A DNA stretch of 64,000 nt from Acidobacteriota bacterium (GTDB taxonomy: Bacteria; Acidobacteriota; Terriglobia; Terriglobales; SCQP01): positions 213,842 through 277,841 of the forward strand of contig SCQP01000016.1 of the NCBI GenBank assembly GCA_004299485.1. The letters run 5' to 3'. Shown here one piece after another: positions 5,426 through 24,988 of the stretch (its first letter is position 1; every line of letters starts with the position of its first letter). The translations under genes were made by a program, and so were the position numbers. The notes under the pieces were generated by a model. The model was not told the DNA's origin. It worked only from the letters and a program-made list of their open reading frames with translations, and made no database searches.

Positions 5426-5494
5426 GCGTGGAACGCGGAGAGCTTCCTTCACTTTACCAGAGCTGCCGGCATGGTATGGTGATAGCTTGCCGCT

Positions 5495-7850: not shown

Positions 7851-7853
7851 CGA

Positions 7854-8201
7854 ATGCGGGCTGCCGACGGACAAGTCTTCGCGATCACCGGCCTCTGCCG
7901 GCAATCCGATTTTCGCGTGCCGCTTGGGGACTGGAGTTTGGTCCACCTGGGAACCGCCGAGATCGGAGGCGGCGAGGAACCGTACCTGCTGGTGCGCCGA
8001 AGGATGGATAACGGAACCAGTACGGTGGTTTGCCGCATCGATTGGGAGGGCGTGTTTACGGTGCTGGCCGACGACGATACCGCTGCGGAGGCGCTGTTTC
8101 ACGATCTGGTCGATCCGGCGGCGCCGGAAGAAGTCCAGCGCCAGTGGACGGCTGAGGCGGACACGCTCGAGCAATATCGCGGCTGGCGGCAACAAGCATG
8201 A
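7854..8201 (+). CDS. Hypothetical protein
   Basis: 115-aa ORF. Its stop overlaps the start of the next gene (ATGA). Confidence 0.45.
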   Translation: MRAADGQVFAITGLCRQSDFRVPLGDWSLVHLGTAEIGGGEEPYLLVRRRMDNGTSTVVCRIDWEGVFTVLADDDTAAEALFHDLVDPAAPEEVQRQWTAEADTLEQYRGWRQQA

Positions 8202-8953: not shown

Positions 8954-8954
8954 G

Positions 8955-9065
8955 GTGGCTCGCCACTTTTTGCCCCGGTCGCTCCCGTTGGTCGCTCGGA
9001 GTGCGGGCTTCGATTCCCGGCAGAGTCCGCCCGCTGGCGCTCGGGGCTCCTCCAAGCTGCCGCCA
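8955..9065 (+). repeat. 111-bp interspersed repeat, copy 1
   Basis: Begins gtggctcgccactttttg and ends ctccaagctgccgcca. It starts 1 nt after the stop of the ABC ATPase gene. Near-identical copies lie at 29961-30071 and 34374-34484. Confidence 0.95.
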
Positions 9066-9521
9066 CATGTGCGCTTTTGGTCTCGTCCGCTGTTCCCTTT
9101 TTTTACGCTAACTGTACCACTTTGCAACGCAAAGCAGCGTATTTGCTGGGGATCTTGAATGTCTGGAGTGGCACACGCGGAACAGGAAATGGAACAGGCG
9201 CGTACGGGGCGCCGTGGCGGGTGGCGAGTCGCGAGTGGTGAGACAAGGCTGACGGACATGGTTCGAGTGTTGGATCGGCGGTGCGCACCCACGGTATCCC
9301 TGCTTCGCGCTCGCGCTACGCAGGGCAGGGCCGGCGGAGCTGCCCGGTCAAGCTAAGGACGGTTATGAGTAATTAGATGGGCAAAGGGATCATTTGGTTG
9401 GCCGGAAGGGAGAATGCGTGAGCCCTGAAATGGGACGGCGTGACCCCACATGAACGGGGATTGACTGCATCACGGCGTGAGTTGAGGCTGGTAGCTATTC
9501 GGCTCATTTCCGGACGCTGCC

Positions 9522-10847
9522 ATGCAGTTGAGAATCCCGCTCCTCGCCCCCGCCAGCAGGTTAATTGCCATCGCCCTATCGCTGTTCGGCGCTGGCTTGG
9601 CGTACGCGCAAATCCCCAATCTCACGGCTTCGACGGCGACGCCGTTACCCGAGCACGGCCATAGCTACATCAGCGCGCGGCTGCCGCAGGGCGACGATGC
9701 GGTGCAGGTGTTCGGCGGCGGCGTGAGCGAGTTCGTGAACCCGGCGACGGGATCGGTGAGTTGGCGCATTTGCACCACGCCGCCCAAAGGACGGCAGCTT
9801 TCGATCCCGTTCTGCTTCGTGTACGACTTCGCGGGCGTACACCATCTGGAAAACAACGCGCCGGGCAACCCGAGCTGGAATACGGACGCATCCTACCTCG
9901 AGCAGGGCGGCTGGACCTATTCGCTGCCGGAGCTGACGGAGGTGACGCGGCAGGAGGTGAACGGCAGCTATGTGTGCGACTACGCGACCGATTATATGTT
10001 CCGCGACAGCGAGGGCGGGCGGCACGCGATGGGGTTGTCGATTTTTGGTCCGGCGCCGGGCGCGCCCGCGAACTCGTGCTCCCAGGTGCAGCCGGCGCCG
10101 GGCGGGGTGACGACGGGCGGGGAGGGTGCGATTCTGGCGACGACGAGCGAGCCCAGCGGCAGCTTCAGCCTGCAGCCGGTAACGGTCACCGATGCCGACG
10201 GCACCCGCTACATCTTCAACGACCCCGGCAGGCAGGCGCTGGCGAACGGCTTCACGGCCGAGCTGCCCGACGTCATTGAAGACCGCAACGGCAACGAGAT
10301 CACCCTCACGGACAGCGGCAGTGGCAAGGTGACCGCGACCGACACGGTGGGCCGGGCGGCGGTGGCGACCTCGGGGTTTGGGGCAAGCGCGGGCGACAGC
10401 GTGCAGATTGCGGGCGAGAGCGCGGCCTATACGGTAGACTGGGGCACGGCGGCGTCGAGCTACAGCGTAGACAGCACGTCCGAGTCAGGAACGTGTACAG
10501 TGCCGGGAACGGTTTCGGGTTCGCAGCCCGTGGTGACCTCGATTGAGCTGCCGGACGGCGAGAGCTTCACCTTCCAGTACGATGCGACCTATGGGCTGCT
10601 CGACCGGGTGACGTTCCCAACGGGCGGCTACGTGCGCTACGTCTGGGGGATGAACGCGGCCGCCGAAGGCGGGCAGTTCGCCTCGACCAGCGGAACCTGC
10701 CTGGACCGCTACGGCGAGCCGGCGATCACGGCGCGCTACGTCAGCCTCGACGGGTCAAGTGAGGTTCTGGACCAGAGCTTTGCCTACGCGACCACCTGGC
10801 CATCGAGCGGGGCGGCGTGGAGCAGTAACGGTCACCAATCAGGATGA
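9522..10847 (+). CDS. RHS/YD-repeat protein, N-terminal part with Sec signal peptide (probably the 5' portion of a frameshifted gene)
   Basis: Signal-like N-terminus 'MQLRIPLLAPASRLIAIALSLFGAGLAYAQ'. The ORF ends inside the overlap with the next ORF, which continues the same type of sequence in another frame. Confidence 0.7.
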   Translation: MQLRIPLLAPASRLIAIALSLFGAGLAYAQIPNLTASTATPLPEHGHSYISARLPQGDDAVQVFGGGVSEFVNPATGSVSWRICTTPPKGRQLSIPFCFVYDFAGVHHLENNAPGNPSWNTDASYLEQGGWTYSLPELTEVTRQEVNGSYVCDYATDYMFRDSEGGRHAMGLSIFGPAPGAPANSCSQVQPAPGGVTTGGEGAILATTSEPSGSFSLQPVTVTDADGTRYIFNDPGRQALANGFTAELPDVIEDRNGNEITLTDSGSGKVTATDTVGRAAVATSGFGASAGDSVQIAGESAAYTVDWGTAASSYSVDSTSESGTCTVPGTVSGSQPVVTSIELPDGESFTFQYDATYGLLDRVTFPTGGYVRYVWGMNAAAEGGQFASTSGTCLDRYGEPAITARYVSLDGSSEVLDQSFAYATTWPSSGAAWSSNGHQSG

Positions 10848-13800
10848 AGTGCGGGGCGCAAGCGTCGCCACCGTTTACGCCTACTCCGGCTACACGGTGC
10901 CCTTGCAGCCAAACGACGCGACCGTTTCGACGCTGCAAATGCCGGTGGAGGCAACGATTACGGCCAAAGACTGGAACGGGGCGACGCTGCGGACAACGGC
11001 GGAAACGTGGAACAACCCGCGCGAGATGGCGTCGAAGGAAATTACCGAAGATGATGGCAAGGTGAGCGAGCAGACCTACTTTTACGATGCGAACGAACAG
11101 CAAACGGAAAGGGACGAGTACGACTACGGCTCGGGCGCGCCGGGCGCGCTCACCCGGGTGACGCTGCATACCTACGGTTGCGCGCCCGGCGTGCACATCG
11201 TGGACCGGCCGACGGTGGTTGAGATCGAGGGCAGCTCGCGGACGGTGACGGCGGAGACCGAGTACGCCTACGACCAGTCGCCGCTGGTGGCGAGCGGCGC
11301 CACCGATGGGCGCGATCCGGCCTACGGGGCCGGCCGGGGCATCACCGCGCGCTGCAACCTGACCACGTTGACCAAGGTTAACTACACCGGCAACATCAGC
11401 GAATCGTTTACGTATGACGATGCCGGAAATCGGCTCACCCACGCCGACGGCAACGGCAATACCACGAGCTTTGCCTATAGTTCGAGCGATCAGGCAGCCT
11501 ACCTTACCCAGATCACGCTGCCGAACACCACGACCGCGGGCAAGACCGTCCAGCACTCGTTCACCATGGCCTACGACAACACGACGGGTCTTGAGACCTC
11601 GCGCACGGACGTGCAGAACGCGACCACGACCAGCTTCACCTACAGCGATCCGCTCGACCGGCTCACCGGGCAGAACAATCCGGATGGCGGCAAGATCACC
11701 TACGCCTATACGGCCAACTCGGTCGAGACCAAAAAGCTGGCGATAAACTCCGCCTGGACCGACGCATTTGCGCACTGGGGTGGCCTGGGCAGTGCCGACC
11801 GCAAGCTGACGTACAACGGGACCAATTGGGACACGACCGACACGGCGTTCGACGGCGAGCAGATGCCACTGTATGTTTCCTATCCCTATTTTTCGAGCGG
11901 CATCGGCTCGACCAAGGCCACCAGCAACTCCACCGAGCCAGGCGACACGACCGCGTTTGATGGCCTGGGGCGCCCGACGCAGATCCTACACTCCGATGGA
12001 GGTACGATGACCATAGCTTACTCCGGTCCCAACCGGACGGTCACCGACGCCGCCGGACGGGCGCGCGAGGAGTTCTATGATGCACTCGGGCGTCTGGCCG
12101 AAGTGAAGGAGTTCACTGACGCCAGCGGCGACGGCTACGCCACCTACTATGGCTACGGTTCGCTCGATGACTTGAAGGCTGTGACCCAGGGCAGCGAGAC
12201 GCGCACGTTCGATTATGACAATCTCAACCGGCTGGTGGACGCGATCAACCCGGAAGGTGGAACAGTGGACTATACCTACGACAACGACGGCAACTTAATC
12301 AAGCAGCAGGACGCCAACGGCACCATCGAGAACTACACGTATGACGCGCTCAATCGTTTGCGCGCGCGCAGCTACACGGTGAGCGGCAAGACCGCGGCAA
12401 CGCCAGCGGTCGAGATCGACTACGACATCGACTCCACCGGTGCTGCGACCGATTACGCCACTGGCCGCATGACGCGGGTCATCAGCGGTTCAACTTCAAT
12501 TGGCATGGACCAGTACGATGCCATGGGCCGATTGCAGACCTATGACACCGTCGTGAGCAGCCAAACGTATCACACCAGCCTGCGTTACGACTATCTGGGC
12601 GACGCCGAGTGGGAGGAGCTGCCCGATGGGCGCGAGATTGACGCCACCACGGATTACGAAGGGCGGGCGAAGTTTTTGTCGGACCAGACGGCGAAGTACG
12701 ATTTCCTGCACTATCGGACCTACTCGCCGGCGGGCGGGCTGAGCGAAGAGGAGTTTGGCAACGGGCTGGTAGGGTACGTGGACTACAACAGCCGCCTGCA
12801 ACCGGTTCAGATCTCGGTCAAAAACCCCAGCGATCCGAGCGATAATACCTGGAGAATGAACCTCTCGATTGGATATACGGAGGCGGGGGTGCAGACGGCC
12901 GATAACGGCAACGTGGTTTCCCTGACGGATGCGCTCGGCAACGCGAGCCAGAACTACACCATGAATTACGACCATCTCAACCGATTGCTGAGCTGGTCGA
13001 TGGGAGGAGGTACGAGCTGTCAATTTGCGATTGATCAGTACGGCAACCTGGGTTTGTCGAGCGGCAGCGGCTGCGCGATGCTGAGCGGGCTGAGCTTCAA
13101 CGGCAACAATCAGATCGTGGGCTACACGTACGACGCGAGCGGGGATTTGTTGACGGATAACGCCGGGTCGAACTACGCCTGGGACGGCAACAGCCAGTTG
13201 GTGAACTTCTACACCGGGGGCGCAAGCGGCAGCTACGTGTACGACGGCCTGCTGCGGCGGGTGGAAAAGGCGGCGGACTCGGTCACGACCGTCTACGCGC
13301 GGGACGCGCTGGGCAACGTGGTGGCGAGCCTGACGAACGGCGTCTGGACGGACTACGTCTGGGCGAACCCGCCCGGGGCGGGCAACCGGATGGCCGCGGC
13401 GCCGGCGTCGCCGGATGCGGAGCGGATAGCGGCGGTGGTCGGCTCGGGGGTGGGCACGGTGTACTATTTCCACACCGACCAGGTCGGGACCACGCGCGCC
13501 GTAACCGACGAGAACGGCAACAACGTAGCCACGTGCGGGCAGAACGCGACGTACCCGAACGGGAGCTTTCTGACCTATGGCCCGTTCGGCATGCCGACGG
13601 GCTGCACGCAGACGGCGACGCCGATTCTGTTCACCGGGCACGAGCTGGACAGCGAATCGAACCTGAGCCAGTTCCAGTACCGCAAGTACGCGGCGCTGGA
13701 AGCCCGCTGGGCCACGCCCGACCCGGCCGGGGTGAACGGCCCGCCTGCGCCCTCGCCCAACGGCTTTGACCTCGGCCCGGCTGCCGCGGGCGCACCCGGC

Positions 13801-14088
13801 GATCTCGAACCCGAATCGCCCGTCGCGAGCTTGGCGACCCTGCCTGGCTTCGGCCTCCCGCTCGGTGGCGTCGACCCGCTTGAACCGCAGACATGGAACC
13901 CGTATGCGTATGTCGGCAATACGCCCGTAGTTTTCGTCGACCCGTCGGGACGATGGTGGGGCTGCGTAGCAATGAGCGTTGGCGCCCTAGGCTTTGGGCT
14001 TGCCGGCCTGGCCACGGCGGACCCGTTCCTCGGCGCTATTGGGTGGTCCCTCGGCGCCCACGCCCTGGCATGCCACTTTGTGATGTGA
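10759..14088 (+). CDS. RHS/YD-repeat polymorphic toxin, main body plus 44-aa C-terminal tip
   Basis: Many YD repeats (e.g. 'YTYDNDGNLIKQQDANGTIENYTYDALNRL'). RHS core end 'FTGHELDSESNLSQFQYRKYAALEARWATPDP' followed by 'NPYAYVGNTPVVFVDPSGR'. There is no credible start near 10759, so it is probably fused to 9522-10847 by a +1 shift near 10820. Confidence 0.85.
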   Translation: MRFWTRALPTRPPGHRAGRRGAVTVTNQDEVRGASVATVYAYSGYTVPLQPNDATVSTLQMPVEATITAKDWNGATLRTTAETWNNPREMASKEITEDDGKVSEQTYFYDANEQQTERDEYDYGSGAPGALTRVTLHTYGCAPGVHIVDRPTVVEIEGSSRTVTAETEYAYDQSPLVASGATDGRDPAYGAGRGITARCNLTTLTKVNYTGNISESFTYDDAGNRLTHADGNGNTTSFAYSSSDQAAYLTQITLPNTTTAGKTVQHSFTMAYDNTTGLETSRTDVQNATTTSFTYSDPLDRLTGQNNPDGGKITYAYTANSVETKKLAINSAWTDAFAHWGGLGSADRKLTYNGTNWDTTDTAFDGEQMPLYVSYPYFSSGIGSTKATSNSTEPGDTTAFDGLGRPTQILHSDGGTMTIAYSGPNRTVTDAAGRAREEFYDALGRLAEVKEFTDASGDGYATYYGYGSLDDLKAVTQGSETRTFDYDNLNRLVDAINPEGGTVDYTYDNDGNLIKQQDANGTIENYTYDALNRLRARSYTVSGKTAATPAVEIDYDIDSTGAATDYATGRMTRVISGSTSIGMDQYDAMGRLQTYDTVVSSQTYHTSLRYDYLGDAEWEELPDGREIDATTDYEGRAKFLSDQTAKYDFLHYRTYSPAGGLSEEEFGNGLVGYVDYNSRLQPVQISVKNPSDPSDNTWRMNLSIGYTEAGVQTADNGNVVSLTDALGNASQNYTMNYDHLNRLLSWSMGGGTSCQFAIDQYGNLGLSSGSGCAMLSGLSFNGNNQIVGYTYDASGDLLTDNAGSNYAWDGNSQLVNFYTGGASGSYVYDGLLRRVEKAADSVTTVYARDALGNVVASLTNGVWTDYVWANPPGAGNRMAAAPASPDAERIAAVVGSGVGTVYYFHTDQVGTTRAVTDENGNNVATCGQNATYPNGSFLTYGPFGMPTGCTQTATPILFTGHELDSESNLSQFQYRKYAALEARWATPDPAGVNGPPAPSPNGFDLGPAAAGAPGDLEPESPVASLATLPGFGLPLGGVDPLEPQTWNPYAYVGNTPVVFVDPSGRWWGCVAMSVGALGFGLAGLATADPFLGAIGWSLGAHALACHFVM
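12847..13913 (+). repeat. 1,067-bp direct repeat, copy A (inside the main RHS gene)
   Basis: Aligns colinearly with 14952-16018 at a constant offset of 2105 nt with no indels. Differences are scattered single-base substitutions. Confidence 0.9.
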
Positions 14089-14108
14089 TCCGCTCGGAGA
14101 GAGGCAAA

Positions 14109-14441
14109 ATGGAGACTCAATTTGACCCCCGGCGCGAGATCCAGGTTATTTGGGTCATGCTTGGTTTCATGGTCGTGGGTTGCGCTTTTATGGCTTGGTC
14201 CGTGGCTTCCGCATTTGCTGGCCCCGTGATGTGGACGATAGCGGTCGCGGTGGGTGCGCCTGCGGCGGTATTTGCCTTTTATCTGTCGAGCTTCCGTTCC
14301 AGCCTGCGTCGGATGGGCAGCACGGCTAGTTCCCAGGGGCAGCGATCTCTCATGAGGCTAATGGCAGCAGCGGCGTTTTATGTTGGGGCTGTCGGGTTAG
14401 CGGTCGGTGAGGCCATAGGCCGTGTACCAGGAGGACACTGA
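14109..14441 (+). CDS. Small membrane protein, candidate immunity protein for the RHS tip
   Basis: 110 aa from the ATG at 14109, preceded by 'ggagagagg'. Starts 21 nt after the RHS stop. About 3 hydrophobic helices ('VIWVMLGFMVVGCAFMAWSVA', 'VMWTIAVAVGAPAAVFAFYL', 'AAAAFYVGAVGLAVG'). Confidence 0.6.
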   Translation: METQFDPRREIQVIWVMLGFMVVGCAFMAWSVASAFAGPVMWTIAVAVGAPAAVFAFYLSSFRSSLRRMGSTASSQGQRSLMRLMAAAAFYVGAVGLAVGEAIGRVPGGH

Positions 14442-14796
14442 ACAGACAATGCCTGACGCTAAGAGTTCCACCGCCGCGCTGGCCTCCACGCACGTTCGGC
14501 GAACGTTTGCGCTCCTTGGGCTGGTACTGATGTTGGCCTGCACGAGCATATTTGATATAGAGCTGGTTCGGGGGTTTGGTGTACCGTTCGGCCCAGTGTT
14601 CTTGCTGCTGTTCATCGCCATCCAGGTATACGCGATATGGCTCTACATAACTCACGTCGCATCTGCTGGCTACGATCCAGATCCACAGGTTATTGCGACC
14701 TCGATCGGGCTGGAGGGCGCCTTCCTCCTACTGGCTATCACGACGTCAGCTATCTCTATCACCGGAGCCTACGTTCTCAGCCTTATCAAGGCTTAA
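14422..14796 (+). CDS. Small membrane protein (second immunity-like gene)
   Basis: 124-aa ORF (alternative ATG at 14449) with 3-4 hydrophobic helices. The DNA is visibly AT-richer than its surroundings. Confidence 0.55.
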   Translation: MYQEDTEQTMPDAKSSTAALASTHVRRTFALLGLVLMLACTSIFDIELVRGFGVPFGPVFLLLFIAIQVYAIWLYITHVASAGYDPDPQVIATSIGLEGAFLLLAITTSAISITGAYVLSLIKA

Positions 14797-14951
14797 AATG
14801 CGTGATCACCGGATCAATCGGCTTTTTAGTTGGTCCAGGGGCGTCTGCGCGGCGGGTCCCGGCGAGCCGCCGGCAGCGGGCGGGACGGATGGTGCGGGAG
14901 GGGCGGGGGGGCCCGGCGCTTGCGGGATGAGCCCAATCATCGCAGCAGTGC

Positions 14952-16018
14952 ACCTGGAGGATGGACCTGTCGATTGGGTATACGAAGGCGGGGGTGCAGA
15001 CGGCCGATAACGGCAACGTGGTTTCCCTGACGGATGCACTCGGCAACGCGAGCCAGGATTACACCATGAACTACGATCAGCTCAACCGTTTGCTGAGCTG
15101 GTCGACGGGAGGAGGCACGAGCTGTCAATTTGCAATCGATCAGTACGGCAACCTGGGTTTGTCGAGCGGCACGGGCTGCGCGATGCTGAGCGGGCTGAGC
15201 TTCAACAGCAACAATCAGATCGTCGGCTACAGCTACGACCCAAGCGGCAATTTGCTGACCGACAGCGCCGGGTCGAACTACACCTGGGACGGCAACAGCC
15301 AGTTGGTGAACTTCTACACCGAAGGCGCCAGCGGCAGCTACGTCTACGACGGTCTACTGCGGCGGGTGGAAAAGACGGCGGACTCGGTGACAACCGTCTA
15401 CGCGCGCGATGCGCTGGGCAACATGGTTGCGAGCCTGACGAACGGCGTCTGGACAGACTACATCTGGTCGAACCCGCCGAAAGCGGGCAACCGCGTGGCC
15501 GCAGCGCCGGCATCGCCTGAGGCCGAGCGGATCGCCGCGGTGGTTGGATCCGGGGTGGGCACGGTGTACTACTTCCATACCGACCAGGTCGGGACGACGC
15601 GCGCCGTGACCGACGAAAACGGCAATAACGTGGCCACGTGTGGGCAGAACGCGACGTACCCGAATGGGAGCTTTCTGACGTATGGTCCGTTCGGCATGCC
15701 GACGGGCTGCACGCAGACGGCGACGCCGATTCTGTTTACCGGCCACGAGCTGGACAGCGAATCGAACCTGAGCCAGTTCCAGTACCGCAAGTACGCCGCG
15801 CTGGAAGCCCGCTGGGCCACGCCCGACCCGGCAGGCGTGAACGGCCCGCCGGCGCCATCGCCCAACGGCTTTGATCTGGGCATAACCGCCGCGGGCGCGC
15901 CCGGCGACCTCGAACCCGAATCGCCCGTCGCCAGCCTGGCGACCCTGCCCGGCTTTGGCTTGCCGCTCGGTGGCGTCGACCCGCTCGAGCCGCAGACCTG
16001 GAACCCCTATGCATACGT
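14952..16018 (+). repeat. 1,067-bp direct repeat, copy B (orphan RHS cassette)
   Basis: Homologous to 12847-13913. Homology starts at acctggag and decays after tatgc(a/g)ta(c/t)gt. Confidence 0.9.
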
Positions 16019-16187
16019 GGATGGCGACCCGGCGTCTGGTTTCGATCCCGACGGCCGCTGGAACTGGTGCCTCACCGGAACAGTCGTGTCTATCGGCCTG
16101 AAGGTCTGGGGTATGACAGGGAACCCAATCGCCTTCGCCGCCGGTTGGTACCTCGGCGGCTATGTCGCTTTTGCGTGCCTCAAATGA
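14961..16187 (+). CDS. Orphan RHS C-terminal fragment with alternative 42-aa tip
   Basis: The 408-aa ORF duplicates the last ~355 aa of the RHS shell and core ('MDLSIGYTKAGVQTADNGN...FTGHELDSESNL...'). It then diverges to 'FDPDGRWNWCLTGTVVSIGLKVWGMTGNPIAFAAGWYLGGYVAFACLK'. The ATG at 14961 corresponds to an internal Met of the main gene, so independent translation is uncertain. Confidence 0.75.
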   Translation: MDLSIGYTKAGVQTADNGNVVSLTDALGNASQDYTMNYDQLNRLLSWSTGGGTSCQFAIDQYGNLGLSSGTGCAMLSGLSFNSNNQIVGYSYDPSGNLLTDSAGSNYTWDGNSQLVNFYTEGASGSYVYDGLLRRVEKTADSVTTVYARDALGNMVASLTNGVWTDYIWSNPPKAGNRVAAAPASPEAERIAAVVGSGVGTVYYFHTDQVGTTRAVTDENGNNVATCGQNATYPNGSFLTYGPFGMPTGCTQTATPILFTGHELDSESNLSQFQYRKYAALEARWATPDPAGVNGPPAPSPNGFDLGITAAGAPGDLEPESPVASLATLPGFGLPLGGVDPLEPQTWNPYAYVDGDPASGFDPDGRWNWCLTGTVVSIGLKVWGMTGNPIAFAAGWYLGGYVAFACLK

Positions 16188-17653
16188 GCGGAGCCGAGCG
16201 GCGGTCCGCGAGCGCGCTGGCCTCCTTTTGGTTCTTAGTAGGCGCGCTGCTGGGCGGGCGGTGGCGCAGGACTCAGGCTCGCGGGGGTGCGCTGCCGCTT
16301 CTGGTGGGGTTGGCAGCCGGGATCACGCTGGGAGTTTCGCTGATTGCTCGCTTGCACGCGAACCTCAGCCCGGCGGCGTTCGATGGACGCATGGGCGAGT
16401 TGGGGCTGGGGTTGTGGGGCGCGTGGCTGGCGTCGGCGGCAATCCTGCGTGTGGACTTCGGGTGGCACGTGCCGCTGCGCCCGTGGGCCATCCGGCCTGG
16501 GTTCTGGGCTGGTTATACGGCCGCGGTTGCGCTGGCGCCGCTCACCGCTGTGGTCGCCGGCGGGTTTGTGGTCACTTTGGTCGCCGCGGTGCTTGCGTTG
16601 CGGCCTTCTGCAGGTGGGGCGCTGCTGCTGGTGGCGGCGCTTTCGCTATTGTTCTTTGCTACGCTGCGCGTGACGCATTTGGCGCTGGTGCTACTCCGAC
16701 CGGGCGGAGCCGTCGTTGAGCGCATGGCCGGGCTCGCCATTGCCCTTGGGCTGGCAACCTGGAACTGGCTGGCAGGAGGCCTGGTGCCGCTGCATTGGGT
16801 GGGACAGCGTGCGGGCGGCGTGGCGGAACTGCTCGGATTGCTTTTGGCGGTTTGTGCTGCGGACGGCTGGCTCACGCGACGCGTCCTGCTGCAAGGACTG
16901 GCAGGGCGGCAGCGGGAAGTGATTCGCACCGGAGCGTTGGGTGCAGGCGCGGGTCCGGCTGCGGCCCTCCGCCGCGCGGCGCTGATTGGCTGGTTGCGGC
17001 ATGCCAACATCGACTTCGCGTTAGCCTTCGGCGCGCTTTGGCTCCCGATATTCGCCCTGCTCGCGCCCGGTACAATGCAGCCGGGGATGCCGATTGCCTT
17101 CTGCGGCTTTGCGCTGCTTTTCCTTTCGCTAGTGCGCGGGAATCTGCTTGGCATTGACGGCGCCGGAACCTGGCGCCATGCGTCGGCCGCGGTGGCGCCA
17201 TGGCAAGTGCTTTTGCAGCGCGGGCGGGTGCTGGATTGGATCGAAATTGTCGTCCTTGCGCCGACGCTGGCTCTTTCGGTGGCCCAGCGGCCCGGGGGCT
17301 GGACGGGGATCGTGGCGACAGTCGCGTTCGCGGTGAGCACTATTTCCTCGCAAGGCGCGGCGGGGTTGTTGCTGTCGTGCGCCTACCCGGAGCCGGTAGA
17401 GCGCTCGGATTTCCGCTCCGGAATGAATGCGACCGGAGGGAATTGGATTCTGCTGGGCACCATGATCTGGACGGTAGGCTTCCTGCTTGCATTTCTGCGC
17501 ACCTGGCCCGGCGCCGCGGCGTGGATCTGGCCGGCAGCGCTTGCCGGGGTCTGCCTGCTGATCCGGGAGGCGGTGGTCCGGCGTTTAAAGAGTCAGCTTG
17601 CGACTACCTGGCCGGCGCGGGTGCTGGCGCGGATGGGAGCGGTGCTGTCGTGA
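16184..17653 (+). CDS. Large polytopic membrane protein (putative ABC-exporter permease)
   Basis: About 490 aa from the ATG at 16184, which overlaps the orphan RHS stop (ATGA). At least 10 hydrophobic segments. Followed by an ABC ATPase with a GTGA overlap. The track ORF begins at 16067 inside the RHS fragment. Confidence 0.65.
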   Translation: MSGAERRSASALASFWFLVGALLGGRWRRTQARGGALPLLVGLAAGITLGVSLIARLHANLSPAAFDGRMGELGLGLWGAWLASAAILRVDFGWHVPLRPWAIRPGFWAGYTAAVALAPLTAVVAGGFVVTLVAAVLALRPSAGGALLLVAALSLLFFATLRVTHLALVLLRPGGAVVERMAGLAIALGLATWNWLAGGLVPLHWVGQRAGGVAELLGLLLAVCAADGWLTRRVLLQGLAGRQREVIRTGALGAGAGPAAALRRAALIGWLRHANIDFALAFGALWLPIFALLAPGTMQPGMPIAFCGFALLFLSLVRGNLLGIDGAGTWRHASAAVAPWQVLLQRGRVLDWIEIVVLAPTLALSVAQRPGGWTGIVATVAFAVSTISSQGAAGLLLSCAYPEPVERSDFRSGMNATGGNWILLGTMIWTVGFLLAFLRTWPGAAAWIWPAALAGVCLLIREAVVRRLKSQLATTWPARVLARMGAVLS

Positions 17654-18465
17654 GCGCGGCGATCGAGTTGCGGGAGGCGAGCAAGCGCTACGGCGATTGG
17701 GGGCGCTTTGCGGTTGAAGCGCTGTCGTTCGCGGTCGAGACGGGTACAGTGCTGGGCCTCGTGGGCCCGAATGGCGCCGGCAAGACGACGACTATATTTA
17801 TGCTTGCGGGCTTGCTGGAGCCGAGCGCGGGAACGCTACGGGTGCTGGGGCGTGAGGTGCGGCCGGGGCTCGGCGACCCGCGCGTGGGGCTGGTATCCGG
17901 CTCGCTCGAGGAATTCGACTATTTGACGGGGACGGAGTCAGTGATCCTGGTGGGACGTCTGCTGGGGCTGCCGGGCCGGGAGGCGGCGCGGCGGGCGGAG
18001 GCGCTGCTGAAGCTATTCGATCTTGGTGGGGCGGAGAACGGCCTGTTGCCGACTTATTCTTCCGGGATGAAGCAGAAAATCCGGGTTGCATGCGCGCTCG
18101 TGGGCACTCCGGAGGTGCTGCTGCTGGATGAGCCGTTCGAGGCACTGGATATTACGGCGAGCGCGATTTTGGCCGAAATCATCCGGCGGTTTGCAGCGGG
18201 CGGGGGAACGGTGCTGCTCGCCAGTCATGATCTGCGGCTGGTGGAGCGGGTGGCGACACATTACGCGATCCTGAAAGCCGGGCGGCTGGTCGAGACCGGC
18301 AGCCTGAGCGCGCTCGCCAGCGGCACGGCCGACGGGGGCGGAGGGCACCCGGCGCTGGAGCAGCGGTTCTGGGAGCTGACTGGGCCGCCTGCGGTTCCCG
18401 AACTTGACTGGCTGCGGCAAGGGAGTGAGGGCTCCGCCTGTGCCGGCGAGCCCGCGGGAAGCTGA
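17650..18465 (+). CDS. ABC transporter ATP-binding protein (ABC-2/DrrA-like)
   Basis: Walker A 'GPNGAGKTT', signature 'YSSGMKQKIRVA', Walker B 'LLLDEPFEALD', H-loop 'LASHD'. The GTG at 17650 overlaps the upstream stop; the track ORF starts at 17200. Confidence 0.8.
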   Translation: MSAAIELREASKRYGDWGRFAVEALSFAVETGTVLGLVGPNGAGKTTTIFMLAGLLEPSAGTLRVLGREVRPGLGDPRVGLVSGSLEEFDYLTGTESVILVGRLLGLPGREAARRAEALLKLFDLGGAENGLLPTYSSGMKQKIRVACALVGTPEVLLLDEPFEALDITASAILAEIIRRFAAGGGTVLLASHDLRLVERVATHYAILKAGRLVETGSLSALASGTADGGGGHPALEQRFWELTGPPAVPELDWLRQGSEGSACAGEPAGS

Positions 18466-18516
18466 AGGCATGAGAGTGGCTCGACCCTGGCGGCGCGGGG
18501 CGCTTATGATTAGGTT

Positions 18517-19392
18517 GTGAACTCAATTCATGCTTTTGCCTGGCACAACGGCCAGCTGGTTCCCACTGCGGAGCTGCGGGTCTCGCCGCTGCAGACGGGG
18601 CTGCTGAGCGGCTGGGGGCTGTTCAGTACGCTGCGGATTTACCAGGGCGTGCCGTTTGCTCTGGAAGATCACTGGCAGCGACTGGCGACCGATGGGGCCA
18701 AGCTGCTGATGGATATGAGTGGGCTGGAAGAGGAGATGCAGCGCGCGCTGGCGGCCGTCATCGCCCGGAATGACGCGCAGGAGGCGGTAGCGCGGGTGTA
18801 CTTCATCCGCAACGGCGGCGGATTGCTGGACTGCCCGCATGAGCGCGCGACCGACGTGCTGGTGTTTACGCGGGCGCTGCGGAGCTGGGGCGAGGCGGCA
18901 AAGCTGCTGTTGCAGCCACATGGGCGCGACCCGGAAGCGCCGCTGGCGGGCACCAAGACGCTGACCTGGTCGCATAACCTGGTGCAGGTGGAGCAGGCGC
19001 ATGCGCGCGGCTACGACGACGTGCTGCTGCTGAATCCGCGCGGGGAAGTGGCCGAATGCACTTCGGCGAACATTTTTGTGGCGCGCAACGGGCGGCTGCG
19101 CACGCCGCCGCTGAGCTCGGGCGCGTTGCCGGGCATCAGCCGCAAGCTGTTGCTGGCGGCCGCGCCCAAGCACGGACTGAAAATTGAGGAAGCGGCGCTG
19201 ACCGAGGCCGATTTGTACACGGCCGAGGAGATTTTCATCACCTCGAGCACGCGCGAGGTGCAGGCGGTGGAGCGGATTGAAGCCCGGGACATTCCGCGCG
19301 GGCCGCTGACCGCGCGCGCCCAAGCTATCTTCAAGGAACTGGTGGGGGGTTACGTGGCATCGCACAAGGAGCTCGCGGCAAAACAGGTATGA
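18517..19392 (+). CDS. Class IV aminotransferase (branched-chain aminotransferase / aminodeoxychorismate lyase family)
   Basis: 291 aa with fold-type IV pattern ('ECTSANIFVARNGRLRTPP', 'LPGISR', 'EIFITSSTREV'). Confidence 0.75.
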   Translation: MNSIHAFAWHNGQLVPTAELRVSPLQTGLLSGWGLFSTLRIYQGVPFALEDHWQRLATDGAKLLMDMSGLEEEMQRALAAVIARNDAQEAVARVYFIRNGGGLLDCPHERATDVLVFTRALRSWGEAAKLLLQPHGRDPEAPLAGTKTLTWSHNLVQVEQAHARGYDDVLLLNPRGEVAECTSANIFVARNGRLRTPPLSSGALPGISRKLLLAAAPKHGLKIEEAALTEADLYTAEEIFITSSTREVQAVERIEARDIPRGPLTARAQAIFKELVGGYVASHKELAAKQV

Positions 19393-20006
19393 GCGCGGGG
19401 CGGCCCATCCTGATCGTGGAAGACGAAGACCTGATCCGGGATACCTATGCCCGGCGGCTGGAGCATGAAGGCTATGCGGTGCGTCAAGCGGCGAGCGGGC
19501 GCGAGGCACTGCAGAGCGTGCGCCAGGCGGCGCCGCAGTTGATCCTGCTGGATGTGATGCTGCCCGACATCAGCGGCCTGGAGGTGCTGAAGTCGCTGCG
19601 CGCCGACCGCCGCTTCCTGTCCACGCCGGTGGTGCTGTTCACCAACCTCAGCCAGCACATGGACAAGCATCAGGCGGCGCGGCTGGGCGCGACGGACTAT
19701 CTGGTGAAATCGGAAGTCGCGCCCGCCGACGTGGTGGCGCGGGTGCGGCAACTGCTGGAATCGAATCCCGGCCGGCGGCCGATTGCCAGCTTCCGGCTGA
19801 GCGTGGATCCGGCGCAGGGGGATGCTGGGGCGCTGGCGTCGCTGCTAGGCTATGAGCGGGATTACCGCTGCCGCCAGTGCGGCGGGCGGATGGAATTGCA
19901 GTTGGATGGTGATTTCTCCGATCCCTGGTCGCGCAACTTCCGGGTGCGCCTGCGCTGTCCGGCCTGCCTGGAGAACCTGCGCGCGCCGGTAGAGAGCCCG
20001 AACTGA
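19389..20006 (+). CDS. Response regulator receiver protein with C-terminal Cys4 zinc-ribbon-like tail
   Basis: 'ILIVEDEDLIRD', acceptor region 'LILLDVMLPDISG', 'TNL...K'. The C-terminus carries 'CRQCGG...CPAC'. ATGA overlap with the upstream gene. Confidence 0.8.
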   Translation: MSAGRPILIVEDEDLIRDTYARRLEHEGYAVRQAASGREALQSVRQAAPQLILLDVMLPDISGLEVLKSLRADRRFLSTPVVLFTNLSQHMDKHQAARLGATDYLVKSEVAPADVVARVRQLLESNPGRRPIASFRLSVDPAQGDAGALASLLGYERDYRCRQCGGRMELQLDGDFSDPWSRNFRVRLRCPACLENLRAPVESPN

Positions 20007-22303
20007 TGTGGTCGGCGCTGCGCAAGGCGATCTCGAATCAAGCCGAGGCGCTGTTGCGCTGGCTGACCGCCTCGGTCATCCGTTCCACCGCCATTTTCGT
20101 CATCCTCACCTTCGTTCCGATTCTGCTGCTGACCTACTACATTGTGGCCACCAGCATCCGCAACACCAAAGCGGCGCAGTCGGGCGCCGACCAGCAGGTG
20201 GCCCAGTTCTCGGTATCGCTGCTCAAAGCCAACTTTGGCGGGGAGCGGGAAGCGCTGGCGGGCGCGGCGGATGAGAGCTCGCTGGAGCAATTGCTGCGGG
20301 AGAGCCTGCAGCCGGAGTCGCGCTCGGCGCGGACGCAGCGGAAGCAAGAACAAGACCTCGCCCGCGCGCAGCAGAGCGCGCGGCAAAATCTGTCGCGCCT
20401 GCGCGCCCGGCGCGCGGAATTCATGGCGATTGCGCTCTACCGCGGCGATGGCGCCCTGCTGGCGGCGGCGCCGGAGGAGAGCAGCCAAGTTCCGGACTTC
20501 ACGGTTGCGGCCACGGATCTGTCCCCGCCGCCGGCTGCTCTGGTTCCGGTGCTGACCGCGGCGGTGTTGCCCCTCTGGTTTCAGCAGGCCCAGGCAGGCC
20601 GGTCCGTAACCTCGGCGGCGCTGCCGGCCCGGGCGCATTGGCCGCGGCGGCTGGCGTTTGCGGTGCCGGTCAGCTTCAACCCGCCGGCGCACCGCCCGGG
20701 CGCAGCGGGCAGCACCGGCGTGCTGGTGGGCTTTCTGCCCACGGCGGTAGTCGGGGACTGGGTGAACCACCTCAGCGCCGGCCCCAACCGCTATTTATAC
20801 GTCGTGGACCGCGACCATCAGATTGTTTCGGGTCCGGTGAATGGCCCGTTCACGCCCGCGATTATCGCGCAGCTCCCCGGGACCGCCAGGGCGTTGACCG
20901 GTCACAGCGGCAGCGGCGAATTTGTCAGCGCCATTCAGCTCGAGAGCCACGCCATTACCTATGCGCCGCTGCCGGAAGAACAGATGGCGCTGGTGCTGGT
21001 GCGGCCGGTGCGCTTCAGCTTTTATATCTACCGCGTCTTTTACGACAAGCTGGCGCTGATCGCGCTGGTGATCTTTCTGCTGGCCGTGGCCACCGGCCTG
21101 CTGTTACGCGCCGCCTTCCGCTATTACCAGCGCTACAGCCGCGAGGTGGAGAGCGGACGCGCCAAGACCGAAGCGCTGCTGGGGAGCATGGGCGACGGCG
21201 TGTTTGCCGTGGATGGCGAAGGCCGCATCATCGAGTTCAATCGCGCCGCGGCGGCGCTGACGGGCGAGACTGCGGCGCAGGCGCTGCATCGTCCCTATAC
21301 CGAAGTCATCCAGCTCAGCGAAGAGCATCCAGGCCAGCTTCCGCAGCATCCCGACCCTGTGCGCCGCGCCATGGCGCAGGGCCGGACCTTCCGCCTGCTG
21401 CGCGACCTGACGCTGCTGCGCGCCGACGGCACGCGGCTGCCGGTGACGTTCAGCGCCGCGCCGGTACGGGACGAGCAGGGCGGGGTGCAGGGCTGCATTG
21501 TGGTGTTCAGCGACGCCAGCCAGGAGCGGGAAGTCGACCGCATGAAGAATGAGTTCATCAGCATCGCCAGCCACCAGTTGCGCACGCCCATGAGCGGCGT
21601 GAAAGGCGTGCTGGCGCTGCTGATTGAGGAAGTGCTGGGGCCGCTGAACATCGAACAGAAGCACTACTTGCAGCGCGCCTATGAATCGAATGAGCGCCTG
21701 ATCGCGCTGGTGAACGATCTGCTGAACGTGAGCCGTCTGGAACAGGGCAGCCTGCTGCTGCGCACCGAGGCGGTGGATCTACCGGCGCTGCTGCGCACGC
21801 TGGCGAGCGAGTTTCAACCGCGCGCCGCGCGCTACCATCAGAACTTGCTGCTCACGGAGGCGGCCAGTCCGGGCGACAGCCGCGCGGGGCTGGTGCAGGG
21901 TGATCCGGTGCGGCTGCGCGAGGTGTTCGCCAATCTCGTCGATAACGCTATCAAGTACACGCCGGAAGGCGGAACGGTGCGGCTTGCCTGGAGTCCGACG
22001 CCCGACCAGGTCGTGGTGGAGGTCAGCGACAACGGCGTGGGCATTCCCGCCGACAAGCTTTCCAGTCTGTTCCTGAAGTTCAACCGCATTCAGAACCCGC
22101 TCAGTGGCCGGGAGTTCGGCACCGGCCTGGGCCTCTATTTCGCGCGCTCGGTAGTGGAGCTGCACCAGGGCCGCATTGAAGTGGCGAGCGAACCGGGTCA
22201 GGGGACGACGTTCCGCGTCTTTCTACCGCGTCAGCCCGCGCCTGCCGCCGACGGAAGCGCGACCCCGCTAGTGGACGCCACCACCGCGGCTCCGGCACAC
22301 TAA
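20006..22303 (+). CDS. Sensor histidine kinase (TM, sensor region, PAS, HisKA, HATPase_c)
   Basis: H-box 'SHQLRTPMSGV', N-box 'NLVDNAIKYT', 'DNGVGI', 'GTGLGL'. PAS-like 'GDGVFAVDGEGRIIEFNRAAAALTG'. Confidence 0.9.
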   Translation: MWSALRKAISNQAEALLRWLTASVIRSTAIFVILTFVPILLLTYYIVATSIRNTKAAQSGADQQVAQFSVSLLKANFGGEREALAGAADESSLEQLLRESLQPESRSARTQRKQEQDLARAQQSARQNLSRLRARRAEFMAIALYRGDGALLAAAPEESSQVPDFTVAATDLSPPPAALVPVLTAAVLPLWFQQAQAGRSVTSAALPARAHWPRRLAFAVPVSFNPPAHRPGAAGSTGVLVGFLPTAVVGDWVNHLSAGPNRYLYVVDRDHQIVSGPVNGPFTPAIIAQLPGTARALTGHSGSGEFVSAIQLESHAITYAPLPEEQMALVLVRPVRFSFYIYRVFYDKLALIALVIFLLAVATGLLLRAAFRYYQRYSREVESGRAKTEALLGSMGDGVFAVDGEGRIIEFNRAAAALTGETAAQALHRPYTEVIQLSEEHPGQLPQHPDPVRRAMAQGRTFRLLRDLTLLRADGTRLPVTFSAAPVRDEQGGVQGCIVVFSDASQEREVDRMKNEFISIASHQLRTPMSGVKGVLALLIEEVLGPLNIEQKHYLQRAYESNERLIALVNDLLNVSRLEQGSLLLRTEAVDLPALLRTLASEFQPRAARYHQNLLLTEAASPGDSRAGLVQGDPVRLREVFANLVDNAIKYTPEGGTVRLAWSPTPDQVVVEVSDNGVGIPADKLSSLFLKFNRIQNPLSGREFGTGLGLYFARSVVELHQGRIEVASEPGQGTTFRVFLPRQPAPAADGSATPLVDATTAAPAH

Positions 22304-22309
22304 AGAAGC

Positions 22310-24037
22310 ATGAGTACGTCTGCCGCTCCCGCCCCGTCCTTGTGGTTCAAAAACGCCGTCATCTACGAAGTGCCGGTGCGTGCTTTTGCCGACTGGAACG
22401 GCGACGGCATCGGCGATTTTCGCGGCCTGATCGACAAGCTCGATTACCTGCAATGGCTGGGGGTGGACTGTCTCTGGCTGCTGCCCTTTTATCCTTCGCC
22501 GCTGCGCGACGACGGCTACGACATCGCCGACTTTCACGACGTGGATCCCGATTACGGCACACTGGAGGACTTCCGGGAACTGCTGGAGGAGGCGCACGCG
22601 CGGGGCATGCGTGTGCTCGCAGATCTGGTGCTCAACCATACCTCGGACCAGCATCCCTGGTTTCAGCAGGCGCGCAGTTCCGCCGATTCCCCCTATCGCA
22701 ACTGGTACGTCTGGAGTTCCGACCCGCACCGCTACGCGCAGGCGCGGATCATCTTCACCGATACCGAAGTCAGCAACTGGACCTGGGATCCGGTCGCCAA
22801 CGCCTATTTCTGGCACCGGTTTTACAGTCATCAGCCGGATTTGAACTACGAGGAACCGGCGGTGCGGAAGGCGATGATCGAGACCGTCTTTTACTGGCTG
22901 GATCTCGGCCTGGACGGCTTCCGCTGCGACGCCGTGCCGTATTTGTTCGAACGCGAGCAGACCATCTGCGAGAATCTGCCCCAAACGCATGCGTTTTTGC
23001 AAGAGTTGCGCCGTCAGGTGGACGCCCGCTACGGCGGGGACCGCATTCTGCTGGCGGAAGCCAATCAATGGCCGAGCGACGTGGTACGGTATTTCGGGCA
23101 GTCACAGCCGGGCGAGCCGGCGGAATTTCATATGGCGTTTCACTTTCCGCTGATGCCACGGCTGTTTATGGCGGTACGTCAGGAAACGCGCCGGCCCATC
23201 GTGGACATTCTCGCGCAGACACCGCCCATCCCGGAGAACTGCCAGTGGGGCCTGTTTCTGCGCAACCATGATGAGCTGACGCTGGAGATGTGCACGGACG
23301 AGGAGCGCGATTACATGTACTACGAGTACGCGCGCGAACCCCGCATGAAGCTCAATCTCGGCATCCGCCGCCGGCTGGCGCCGATTGTGGACAACAGCCG
23401 CCGCGAAATTGAGCTGATGAACGTGATTCTCTTCTCCATGCCGGGCACGCCGATTCTCTATTACGGTGATGAAATCGGCATGGGCGACAATATTTATCTC
23501 TCCGACCGCAACGGCGTGCGCACGCCCATGCAGTGGAACATCGACCGCAACGGCGGCTTTTCCAAGGCGCCCACCGAACGCCTGTATGCGCCCCTCATTC
23601 AGAACCCCATCTACAGCTTTCAGGCGGTCAATGTGGAGCGGCAGTTTCAGGACCCCAATTCCCTGCTCAACTGGATGAAATCGCTGCTGAAGCTGCGGCA
23701 CAACAACCCGCTGTTCGGCTGGGGCGGAATCTCTTTCCTGACCCCGGGCAATGAGCGCGTGCTGGTCTACCTGCGCCGGCTGGCGAAGCAGTCCTCGCAC
23801 TCCTGGGGAGAGATGCCGGGCGCGCGCTGCGTGCTGGTGGTGGCCAACCTGTCGCGGCATTCGCAGGCGGTCGAATTGGATCTGTCGAGCTTTGCCGGCT
23901 GGACGCCGCATGAAATGTTCGGCGAGACGGTGTTTCCGGCAATCGCCACCGCGCCCTACCAGCTCAGTCTGGGCGCCTACGGCTATTATTGGTTCCGTTT
24001 AGAACCCCCGGGCGGCAGCGACGTGCCTGCGTTGTGA
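22310..24037 (+). CDS. treS: Trehalose synthase / maltose alpha-D-glucosyltransferase (GH13)
   Basis: '[10 protein letters not shown]', '[41 protein letters not shown]', '[14 protein letters not shown]', '[10 protein letters not shown]', '[11 protein letters not shown]'. Confidence 0.85.
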
Positions 24038-24717
24038 ACTACTTCAACTACTTCACCGAAATCGAAGAGCATTTTCAGCACAAGCGGGGCGCGCAGATTC
24101 TGCTCTCGCCGGTCGATTGGGCGCTGATTGCGTCCTGGCGCGAAGCCGGCATTCCGCTGGCGGCAGTGCTGGCCGGCATTGATGCCGCCTTTGAGAAATT
24201 CGATTCCGGCCGCCGCCGCGATACGCAGCGGCATCGCTCGCTAATGTATTGCGCCGCAGCAGTGCTGGACGCAGCCGAAGCGGCGCGGGCGGCAGCGGTG
24301 GGCGCGCCCTCGACGCCTGAACCTCCATCGCCGGAAGAGGATACCTTTAGTCCGGGCCGCATCCGCGCGCATCTGGAAAACGCCGCCGCACGGCTTGCTG
24401 CGGCATTGCCTGACGGGACGGCCAGCGATGTCGTCGATACCGTGCGGCGCCTGGCGGCCGCTGATCCGATGGGGCCGCTCGAGCAACTTGACCGAGTTTT
24501 GACGGTATGCGATGAGAAGCTGCTGGCGGCACTCACGGCCGCAACGCCGGTGGAAGTCATGGTCGCGCTGCGCGCGGATATGGACCGCGATCTGGCCGCT
24601 TACCGGCGCCGGCTGCGACCGGAGCAGCTCGCCATGATCGAGCGGCAATTCGTGCAGCGCCGGCTGCTGGAGCATTGGAAAGCACCGCGCCTGAGCCTGT
24701 TCTACCTAGATGTATAA
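24034..24717 (+). CDS. Hypothetical protein translationally coupled to treS
   Basis: The GTG at 24034 overlaps the treS stop (GTGA). About 227 aa beginning '[19 protein letters not shown]'. No motif recognised. Confidence 0.5.
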
Positions 24718-24988
24718 TCTAGATGAAATGGATGCGATGAAGACCGTGGGCCTATTTGAAGCCAAGCAAAAGCTCTCCGAGCTGGTGGAGCGCGCCCGCA
24801 CGGGCGAGGAAATCGGCATCACCCGGCATGGCAAACTTGTAGCCAAGGTCGTTCCTGCGGCGGAAGTGCCCAAGCGCACCTGGAAGGAGATCTTTGCTGA
24901 CCTCGACGAGTACCGGAAGCACTTCAGCCCTGGCACGCGGCCGGTGAGCGACGAAGAAATCGTAGCCATGATCCACGAAGGCCATTAG
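24710..24988 (+). CDS. Type II antitoxin, Phd/YefM family
   Basis: 'MKTVGLFEAKQKLSELVERARTGEEIGITRHGKLVAKVV' is a classic Phd/YefM N-terminus. Lies directly upstream of a PIN gene. Confidence 0.8.
   Translation: MYNLDEMDAMKTVGLFEAKQKLSELVERARTGEEIGITRHGKLVAKVVPAAEVPKRTWKEIFADLDEYRKHFSPGTRPVSDEEIVAMIHEGH

Follow-up and report, generated by a model that had tools for sequence, protein, structure and literature searches.

A putative ABC-transporter immunity system beside an orphan RHS toxin tip in an Acidobacteriota genome

Introduction

The 64,000-nt stretch of DNA analyzed here (the window) covers positions 213,842-277,841 (forward) of contig SCQP01000016.1 (assembly GCA_004299485.1), from a soil Acidobacteriota bacterium of the Terriglobales (SCQP01). 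Within it, an orphan C-terminal fragment of an RHS gene, ending in a 42-aa hydrophobic tip, is directly followed by the genes of a 489-aa polytopic membrane protein (MP) and of an ATP-binding cassette (ABC) ATPase, and comparison of the sequences suggests that MP and the ATPase probably form an ABC-transporter immunity system for the RHS tip. This proposal is carried by the gene order and overlaps, by the strict pairing of MP with the ATPase, by the near-exclusive linkage of the pair to a hydrophobic peptide, and by its joint presence or absence with the RHS locus.

Immunity to polymorphic toxins, whether of the RHS, contact-dependent growth inhibition (CDI), type VI secretion system (T6SS) or type VII secretion system (T7SS) kind, has been described almost wholly as one small cognate binding protein per toxin, and in the part of the 2012 polymorphic-toxin catalogue considered here, which has more than 90 immunity families, no transporter is listed (PMC3482391). 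Membrane-depolarising RHS tips, orphan modules and ABC-type producer immunity to peptides are each already known separately; their combination appears to be new, in that we found no report in the literature of an ABC transporter in RHS immunity position, nor of a bacteriocin-type RHS tip travelling with such a transporter. If the proposal is correct, transporter immunity would be larger, energy-dependent and potentially broader, which would alter how tips and immunity genes co-evolve and are exchanged. The locus also joins two weapon classes that are usually kept apart, with a peptide and its ABC cassette used either as a free secreted system or as an RHS payload, in a phylum that is abundant in soil and whose competition systems have been little studied experimentally.

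Results

An orphan RHS tip is followed by a membrane protein and an ABC ATPase

The stop codon of the orphan RHS fragment (TGA, 16185-16187) and the start codon of MP (ATG at 16184) share the sequence ATGA at 16184-16187, and the MP gene (end at 17653) shares GTGA at 17650-17653 with the ATPase gene, which starts with GTG at 17650. Both overlaps had been claimed in a preliminary description of this DNA and are plain from the sequence itself; a public contig of 99% identity, on which genes were called independently, has the same products of 489 and 271 aa. The other structural claims of that description held up as well: its polytopic membrane protein of ~490 aa has 489 aa and an all-helical AlphaFold2 (AF2) model with ~12 transmembrane helices, its GPNGAGKTT ATPase of the DrrA/ABC-2 type has TIGR01188 as best NCBIfam model (below the cut-off), and its tips of 42 and 44 aa are what follows DPxGR in the orphan and in the main RHS gene, respectively. 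Its suggestion of translational coupling between RHS and MP stood only in part, as the overlap is present in the window but specific to this genome; in relatives the two genes remain adjacent and are separated by about 5-66 nt. The overlap between MP and the ATPase, or a gap of 3-6 nt in its place, is conserved among relatives, and the ATPase start overlaps the MP stop codon in the window and in loci L009, L010, L016 and L104. A 4-nt gene overlap is frequent in operons and unremarkable alone. Scanning for promoters and terminators was uninformative in this high-GC genome. The features of the locus are as follows.

8941-18516, no strand assigned: genomic island comprising the RHS locus, MP and the ATPase, not in the syntenic locus L225
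9522-10847, plus strand: N-terminal part of the main RHS (Pfam RHS_repeat; aligned to residues 1-431 of the RHS of locus L003)
10759-14088, plus strand: main RHS body with YD repeats, RHS core and DPSGR cleavage-type motif (Pfam; tblastn against the L003 RHS)
13954-14085, plus strand: main tip, 44 aa, WWGCVAMSVGALGFGLAGLATADPFLGAIGWSLGAHALACHFVM (translation; composition; RHS-tip hidden Markov model (HMM), 5e-15)
14112-14441, plus strand: small membrane open reading frame (ORF), 109 aa, ~3 hydrophobic helices (translation)
14422-14796, plus strand: second small membrane ORF, 115-124 aa (translation)
14961-16187, plus strand: orphan RHS C-terminal fragment, 408 aa (Pfam RHS and RHS_repeat; NCBIfam Rhs_assc_core, 1.7e-14)
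16059-16184, plus strand: orphan tip, 42 aa, WNWCLTGTVVSIGLKVWGMTGNPIAFAAGWYLGGYVAFACLK (translation; follows DPDGR)
16184-17653, plus strand: MP, 489-aa polytopic membrane protein (no family match; AF2 all-helical)
17650-18465, plus strand: ABC ATPase, 271 aa, DrrA/ABC-2-like (Pfam ABC_tran; TIGR01188)

The three genes recur together and are absent together

All placeable close relatives of the ATPase lie in the order RHS tip, MP homologue, ATPase (L003-L008, L009/L025, L010-L015 and L016), and no gene intervenes between tip and MP in these RHS-linked relatives. In L003-L008 the tip is carried by a full-length RHS protein of 1519 aa, and L009/L025 is a Terriglobales metagenome-assembled genome. 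L003/L004 is the only place where both flanks can be read, and they differ from those of the window: the downstream neighbour is an M20 peptidase, and a sigma-54/RapZ/MsbA-like group lies on the upstream side. By neighbour joining (no bootstrap), the RHS-linked MPs fall into a single clade, nested beside the peptide-linked MPs and made up of five intact lineages and a decayed sixth. A decayed trio lies at L065:6695-7998 (minus strand), where a deletion has fused the repeats of a truncated RHS gene to the middle of a frameshifted MP gene, which is followed by a truncated ATPase gene, so that RHS, MP and ATPase are decaying jointly.

The syntenic Terriglobales locus L225 (GCA_050747905.1) was aligned to window positions 5491-8940 and 18517-24727 at ~77% nucleotide identity, and in L225 these collinear blocks lie just 181 nt apart; the window thus has an interval, 8941-18516 (from RHS through ATPase), that L225 lacks. 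The preliminary description had asked whether the pair is kept at this position in relatives that lack the RHS locus, and it is not, since L225 lacks RHS, MP and ATPase jointly. On a 93%-identical contig (L227), the MP-ATPase pair stands before the same aminotransferase gene.

The same pair accompanies free-standing peptide precursors

Among loci with enough upstream sequence (at least about 400 nt), a hydrophobic, Gly/Ala-rich and Cys-bracketed peptide of ~40-50 aa is encoded directly upstream of MP in about 27 of 28 lineages. This peptide is the RHS tip in the RHS-linked clade and a free-standing precursor in the remaining 22 lineages (L017, L029, L051, L054, L079, L088, L102, L178, L207, L155, L182, L224, L222, L131, L142, L135, L136, L183, L109, L211, L163 and L153). 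The suggestion that the pair might travel with RHS or peptide-toxin genes elsewhere was thus borne out on both counts, by RHS-tip trios and by free-standing precursors beside a C39 peptidase.

Each precursor consists of a Sec-type signal peptide (ending in ..VSA), a short propeptide ending in GG and a Gly-rich hydrophobic peptide of ~40 aa with four Cys; type A matures to ...C-x16-PCSIIC-x3-AWY-x8-C and type B to ...C(S)DF-x~15-FGCxxC-x~14-C. Further genes of the free-standing loci code for a C39 peptidase with a membrane anchor (Pfam 3e-28) and for a thioredoxin-like protein; peptide A is followed by a membrane ORF of ~40 aa and the ATPase by a Yip1-like protein. In L131, for example, the order is histidine kinase and sigma-54 response regulator, thioredoxin-like protein, C39 peptidase, peptide A, ~40-aa membrane ORF, peptide B, MP, ATPase and Yip1-like protein. 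The Arg-rich membrane anchor at the N-terminus of the C39 protein would place the protease in the periplasm, and the combination of a Sec signal with a GG site suggests periplasmic processing by C39, which would be unusual. No other ABC exporter and no PCAT/HlyD-type exporter was found in the free-standing loci, where MP-ATPase is the sole ABC system. These loci (L088:1856-6453, L131, L142, L051, L054, L079 and others) look like two-peptide bacteriocin loci and appear to be undescribed in Acidobacteriota. The pair at L104 (6655-10306) may be an orphan immunity system. Next to it lies a gene for a DUF1648/DUF5808 membrane protein.

The orphan resembles a displaced tip-plus-immunity module

The orphan fragment is 90.6% identical to positions 12847-13907 of the main RHS gene over 1,061 nt (blastn) and diverges from it at the tip, an extent of identity sufficient for recombination or tip swapping to restore the orphan. 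It has the makings of an orphan module, with an RHS core fragment homologous to the upstream main rhs, a DPxG motif (DPDGR) and a tip of its own, and it has no secretion-competent N-terminus. Immunity genes of RHS and CDI systems directly follow the toxin gene, in orphan modules as well, and when a tip is displaced the former one persists further downstream as an orphan, its immunity genes included (PMC3150448, PMC3967940). The fragment in the window is best read as such a displaced tip-plus-immunity module, the same type of tip being found on full-length RHS proteins in relatives. Comparison with the 99%-identical strain L001 (GCA_040961365.1) gives the classical picture of tip displacement: between L001:1-1110 and window positions 13528-14958, the hydrophobic tip and the two small membrane ORFs are replaced by a different main tip, Cys-rich and non-hydrophobic, followed by a soluble 159-aa ORF, and from 14959 onward L001 is the same as the window, with orphan, MP and ATPase retained.

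The main RHS protein carries a Sec-type signal peptide at its N-terminus (MQLRIPLLAPASRLIAIALSLFGAGLAYA followed by Q, with a cleavage-type site between AYA and Q), and its body is recognized by Pfam RHS_repeat (9e-20) and RHS (8e-7) and matches residues 434-1516 of the L003 RHS in tblastn. Compared with the intact 1519-aa L003 RHS, the gene has a frame change near 10828 that splits it into ORFs 9522-10847 and 10759-14088, which overlap; the change could reflect a real pseudogene or an assembly error; if the frameshift is real, the functional remainder here is the immunity genes and the orphan only. Pfam detects RHS repeats and no PAAR domain in the window RHS. Within the window there is no sign of linkage to a T6SS, either as a PAAR/VgrG N-terminus or as T6SS neighbours: the N-terminus is of the Sec type and the flanks in the window are housekeeping genes common to L225.

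Both tips are hydrophobic, rich in Gly and Ala and have Cys residues at positions 4 and 40; the main tip is matched by the RHS-tip HMM. The pattern C...GWYLGG-x5-C is shared by the orphan tip and the RHS tips of L003, L009 and L010, and reads AWYAGG-x5-C in L016. A glycine zipper was considered as a tip-specific motif and rejected because small-xxx-small counts were not above those of composition-matched shuffles; the tips are therefore described only as Gly/Ala-rich. With an HMM of the type-A peptides, the orphan tip scores above 98.5% of composition-matched shuffles, and five of the six RHS tips score above 96-99.6% of them, chiefly through the shared WY-x8-C ending. The type-B HMM gave no significant score on the RHS tips, and the type-A HMM did not match the main tip of the window. 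Homology of the RHS tips with the type-A peptides is plausible on the strength of these sequence scores. As the tips of the window are fused to RHS, with neither a GG leader nor a C39 gene, they fall outside the double-glycine-leader class II.

The two small membrane ORFs that follow the main tip have no match in Pfam, NCBIfam or PADLOC. The first (14112-14441) may serve the main tip as a conventional immunity protein and the second (14422-14796) as an immunity or accessory protein; one locus may therefore hold both kinds of immunity, small membrane proteins and an ABC pair, side by side.

MP appears to found a new membrane-protein family

No match to MP was found in Pfam, NCBIfam, PADLOC or PDB sequences, which also answers the earlier question of whether it belongs to a transporter family with a defined, unrelated substrate: it falls in none of those covered. 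Across 16 members of the MP family, no Pfam family was matched at E<=10, those of the ABC2_membrane type included. An exhaustive HMMER scan of 1.84 billion representative proteins recovered 23 homologues, which share the invariant motifs R-G-N-L-L-G-x-D-x-x-G-x-W and P-E-P-x-x-R-S...S-G-G, and a word-index search of 5.8 billion proteins returned MP itself as the sole match. Loci in genomes and metagenomes were collected with a degenerate DNA pattern for RGNLLGxDxxxxW and filtered by the MP HMM, most raw matches being due to chance; 9 loci in genomes (8 distinct) and about 30 metagenomic ones were recovered in this way. All genome loci belong to Acidobacteriota (Terriglobales, Terriglobia, Blastocatellia and Thermoanaerobaculia), and an ATPase of the DrrA-like type comes after MP at each of the loci whose sequence extends that far. 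MP appears to represent a new and apparently undescribed family of membrane proteins.

The AF2 model of MP, built with 16 family members, is wholly helical (pLDDT 81.6, pTM 0.75). From its helices and the distribution of Arg residues (positive-inside rule), we infer twelve transmembrane (TM) helices arranged as 6+6, with cytoplasmic termini and an Arg-rich amphipathic helix before each half. The G-x-D..W motifs are placed in the TM2-3 and TM8-9 loops of the model, and all invariant motifs would lie in predicted cytoplasmic loops (TM2-3, TM8-9 and TM10-11), which in ABC-2-type permeases are the site of contact with the ATPase. On account of this topology and of its strict pairing with the ATPase, MP is presumed to be the transmembrane subunit of an ABC transporter. 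Foldseek comparison of the model with the PDB gave a best E of 0.05 with TM<=0.29 and hence no support for an ABC-2/ABCG/Wzm-type fold. An internal duplication of MP was unsupported (hhalign of the N-terminal against the C-terminal half, E=0.11).

The ATPase motifs are intact apart from the Q-loop

The ATPase matches Pfam ABC_tran (7.4e-24). Its best NCBIfam model is TIGR01188 (drrA subfamily; 3.8e-53), where its 180.7 bits against a cut-off of 312.45 leave it outside the curated membership, and the same holds for the nucleotide-binding domain (NBD) model of lantibiotic protection, TIGR03740 (1.6e-32; 113 bits against a cut-off of 309.75). Walker A (GPNGAGKTT), signature (YSSGMKQK), Walker B with the catalytic Glu (LLLDEP) and H-loop (SHD) are all intact, which fits an energy-driven mechanism. 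The Gln of the Q-loop (window region 17860-17900) is replaced: the window ATPase and all its RHS-linked orthologues read VSGSL, whereas most peptide-linked relatives keep the Gln (SPQF). Only five close relatives were found, at 63-71% identity, after which identity drops to 45%. The C-terminal tail (LE..W..G.P...L.W[LI]) was discarded as a family marker because a related tail occurs in Actinobacterial ATPases too, and the PADLOC matches of the ATPase (mad3, AriA) were set aside as generic ABC-ATPase similarity.

Discussion

We propose to read positions 14961-18465 as a displaced module of RHS toxin and immunity, and we infer that the tip is toxic, that it is the substrate of the transporter, and that transport runs in the direction that protects the cell. 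The putative toxin is the orphan's C-terminal tip of 42 aa, which is similar in kind to the free-standing, secreted and apparently two-peptide bacteriocin-like toxins of other Acidobacteriota; the tip, presumably bracketed by a disulfide, would most likely damage the inner membrane from the periplasmic side. Immunity would come from a dedicated ABC transporter, not from a small binding protein. The preliminary description had put forward the same idea of active expulsion, and all the in-silico checks that it named speak for it, as far as comparison of genomes can go. In such a transporter, MP would provide the transmembrane subunit as one chain of 6+6 helices and a dimer of the DrrA-like ATPase the energy, and by analogy with LanFEG, BcrAB and McbEF the peptide would be taken from the membrane or its periplasmic leaflet and expelled, at the cost of ATP, before it assembles. 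Producers and their siblings would then be protected by MP with two copies of the ATPase. A more far-reaching scenario, which we regard as an even call, is that an Acidobacteriota RHS lineage captured a bacteriocin-type membrane peptide together with its ABC transporter, that immunity here is ATP-driven removal of the toxin in place of stoichiometric binding, and that MP founds a family of single-chain, 12-helix permeases without detectable relatives.

Several known systems share part of this arrangement. LanFEG-type transporters, composed of an NBD and two times six transmembrane helices, expel membrane-active peptides and give immunity to the producer (PMC5786555, PMC4234265). The pair resembles LanFEG/CprABC systems such as NisFEG in having a separate DrrA/ABC-2-like NBD, an inferred total of 12 transmembrane helices and short outside loops, and, like LanFEG, it is encoded in the cluster of a putative membrane-active peptide in about 27 of 28 lineages. 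Unlike LanE and LanG, MP is a single chain of 489 aa, similar neither in sequence nor by Foldseek to them or to any ABC-2 permease, and the pair further differs from LanFEG in its gene order (permease, then ATPase), in its diderm host, in the delivery of an unmodified peptide as an RHS tip and in a TIGR03740 score of the ATPase far under the cut-off. No lanthipeptide (Lan) enzyme was found in the island of the window, nor at the related loci.

The closest RHS parallels are Tse5 and other RHS or polymorphic toxins with membrane-depolarising C-terminal domains; the immunity protein of Tse5 is a small membrane protein (PMC11630599). Like Tse5 (RhsP2-type), the window locus has an RHS shell, a hydrophobic C-terminal putative toxin, a DPxG-type release motif and genes in the downstream immunity position (PMC11630599); Tse5 is delivered by a T6SS, whereas the window RHS has a Sec signal and no PAAR, a tip of only 42-44 aa and a downstream ABC pair. 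As in orphan RHS/CDI modules, a C-terminal RHS fragment with its own tip has kept its downstream genes, but these are a two-gene ABC system of 2.3 kb instead of one small immunity ORF. The related free-standing loci, in turn, are reminiscent of class IIb-like double-glycine bacteriocins in that they have two Gly-rich peptides of ~40 aa after ...GG, a C39 peptidase, a small membrane ORF and a two-component regulator; they differ in that the precursors are also of the Sec type, that C39 is free-standing and membrane-anchored and not part of a PCAT, and that the peptides have four Cys. In the window, the RHS shell replaces the route through leader and C39.

A number of observations weigh against immunity by transport. 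In the free-standing loci, the ~40-aa membrane ORF and the Yip1-like protein could be the real immunity factors, and, with no other ABC exporter there, a role of MP-ATPase in export is possible. In the window itself, the related main tip is followed by two small membrane ORFs of the conventional immunity type. The RHS tips show only a weak likeness to the type-A peptides, with p values of about 0.004-0.04 for each tip, and the main tip shows none; the pair at L104 is the only one without an upstream peptide gene. MP has no detectable sequence or fold kinship to ABC-2 permeases, and the loss of the Q-loop Gln could weaken the activity of the ATPase or its coupling.

The alternative that survives best, although we consider it unlikely, is that MP-ATPase is a secretion or maturation machine for the peptide, the cleaved tip or the RHS protein, with immunity as a by-product. 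The free-standing loci, which combine C39 and GG-site precursors with MP-ATPase as their only ABC system and have no PCAT/HlyD-type exporter, are what one might expect of such a machine, and some ABC systems, e.g., McbEF and McjD, both export and protect. The ABC pair is less needed for export across the inner membrane, however, since the RHS protein (AYA before Q) and the free-standing precursors (..VSA) have Sec-type signals and the anchor of C39 would put the protease in the periplasm. A secretion machine would also leave it unexplained why the pair is kept beside an orphan tip that has no secretion-competent N-terminus.

Sequestration is less probable still. Here MP would be an immunity protein of the binding type that traps the peptide within the membrane without any expulsion, and the ATPase would have a regulatory or accessory part. 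Binding by membrane proteins is a known kind of immunity to membrane-active RHS, CDI and T7SS toxins, as for Tsi5, CdiI of EC93-type ionophores and the EsxX immunity proteins (PMC11630599, PMC12744356), and the RHS-linked ATPases have lost the Q-loop Gln. Against this, the ATPase follows MP at every locus with downstream sequence, its start overlapping the MP stop in several, it has kept its catalytic motifs apart from the Q-loop, and the invariant motifs of MP lie in predicted cytoplasmic loops, as would be expected for coupling to an NBD.

We give no greater probability to the idea that the pair is a general envelope, antimicrobial-peptide resistance or lipid-handling transporter that hitch-hikes in competition islands and is not specific for the tip. 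The substrates of ABC-2/DrrA-like transporters are very diverse, L104 has the pair with no peptide gene, and the nearest outside ATPases (45% identity, Actinobacteria) are paired with an unannotated permease of ~527 aa in a housekeeping-looking context. A general transporter would, however, hardly be expected to have one recognisable kind of peptide directly upstream in about 27 of 28 lineages, to belong to an extremely rare family confined to one phylum and to be absent from the syntenic relative without RHS. A chance or passenger adjacency with no functional link to the RHS tip is strongly disfavoured and very improbable: 4-nt overlaps are common in compact operons and that of RHS and MP is not conserved, but the order of tip, MP and ATPase recurs in five further lineages (one decayed), at a different site where the flanks are readable, and the three genes are lost jointly.

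Additional observations

At the left edge of the island, 5' of the RHS start, lies a non-coding stretch of 569 nt (window 8954-9521); in L225 only 181 nt separate the flanking genes.

The nearest outside ATPases, from Actinobacteria, are followed at L228:5001-7318 by the 527-aa membrane protein mentioned above, which has no Pfam match. Its N-terminal Arg-rich helix and a loop with '...NGAGYDGSAF...' mirror motifs of MP; these analogous motifs align, but kinship of the two proteins is not supported by hhalign (E=0.65), and the resemblance was kept as a lead. The L228 arrangement may point to a wider, unrecognised class of permeases.

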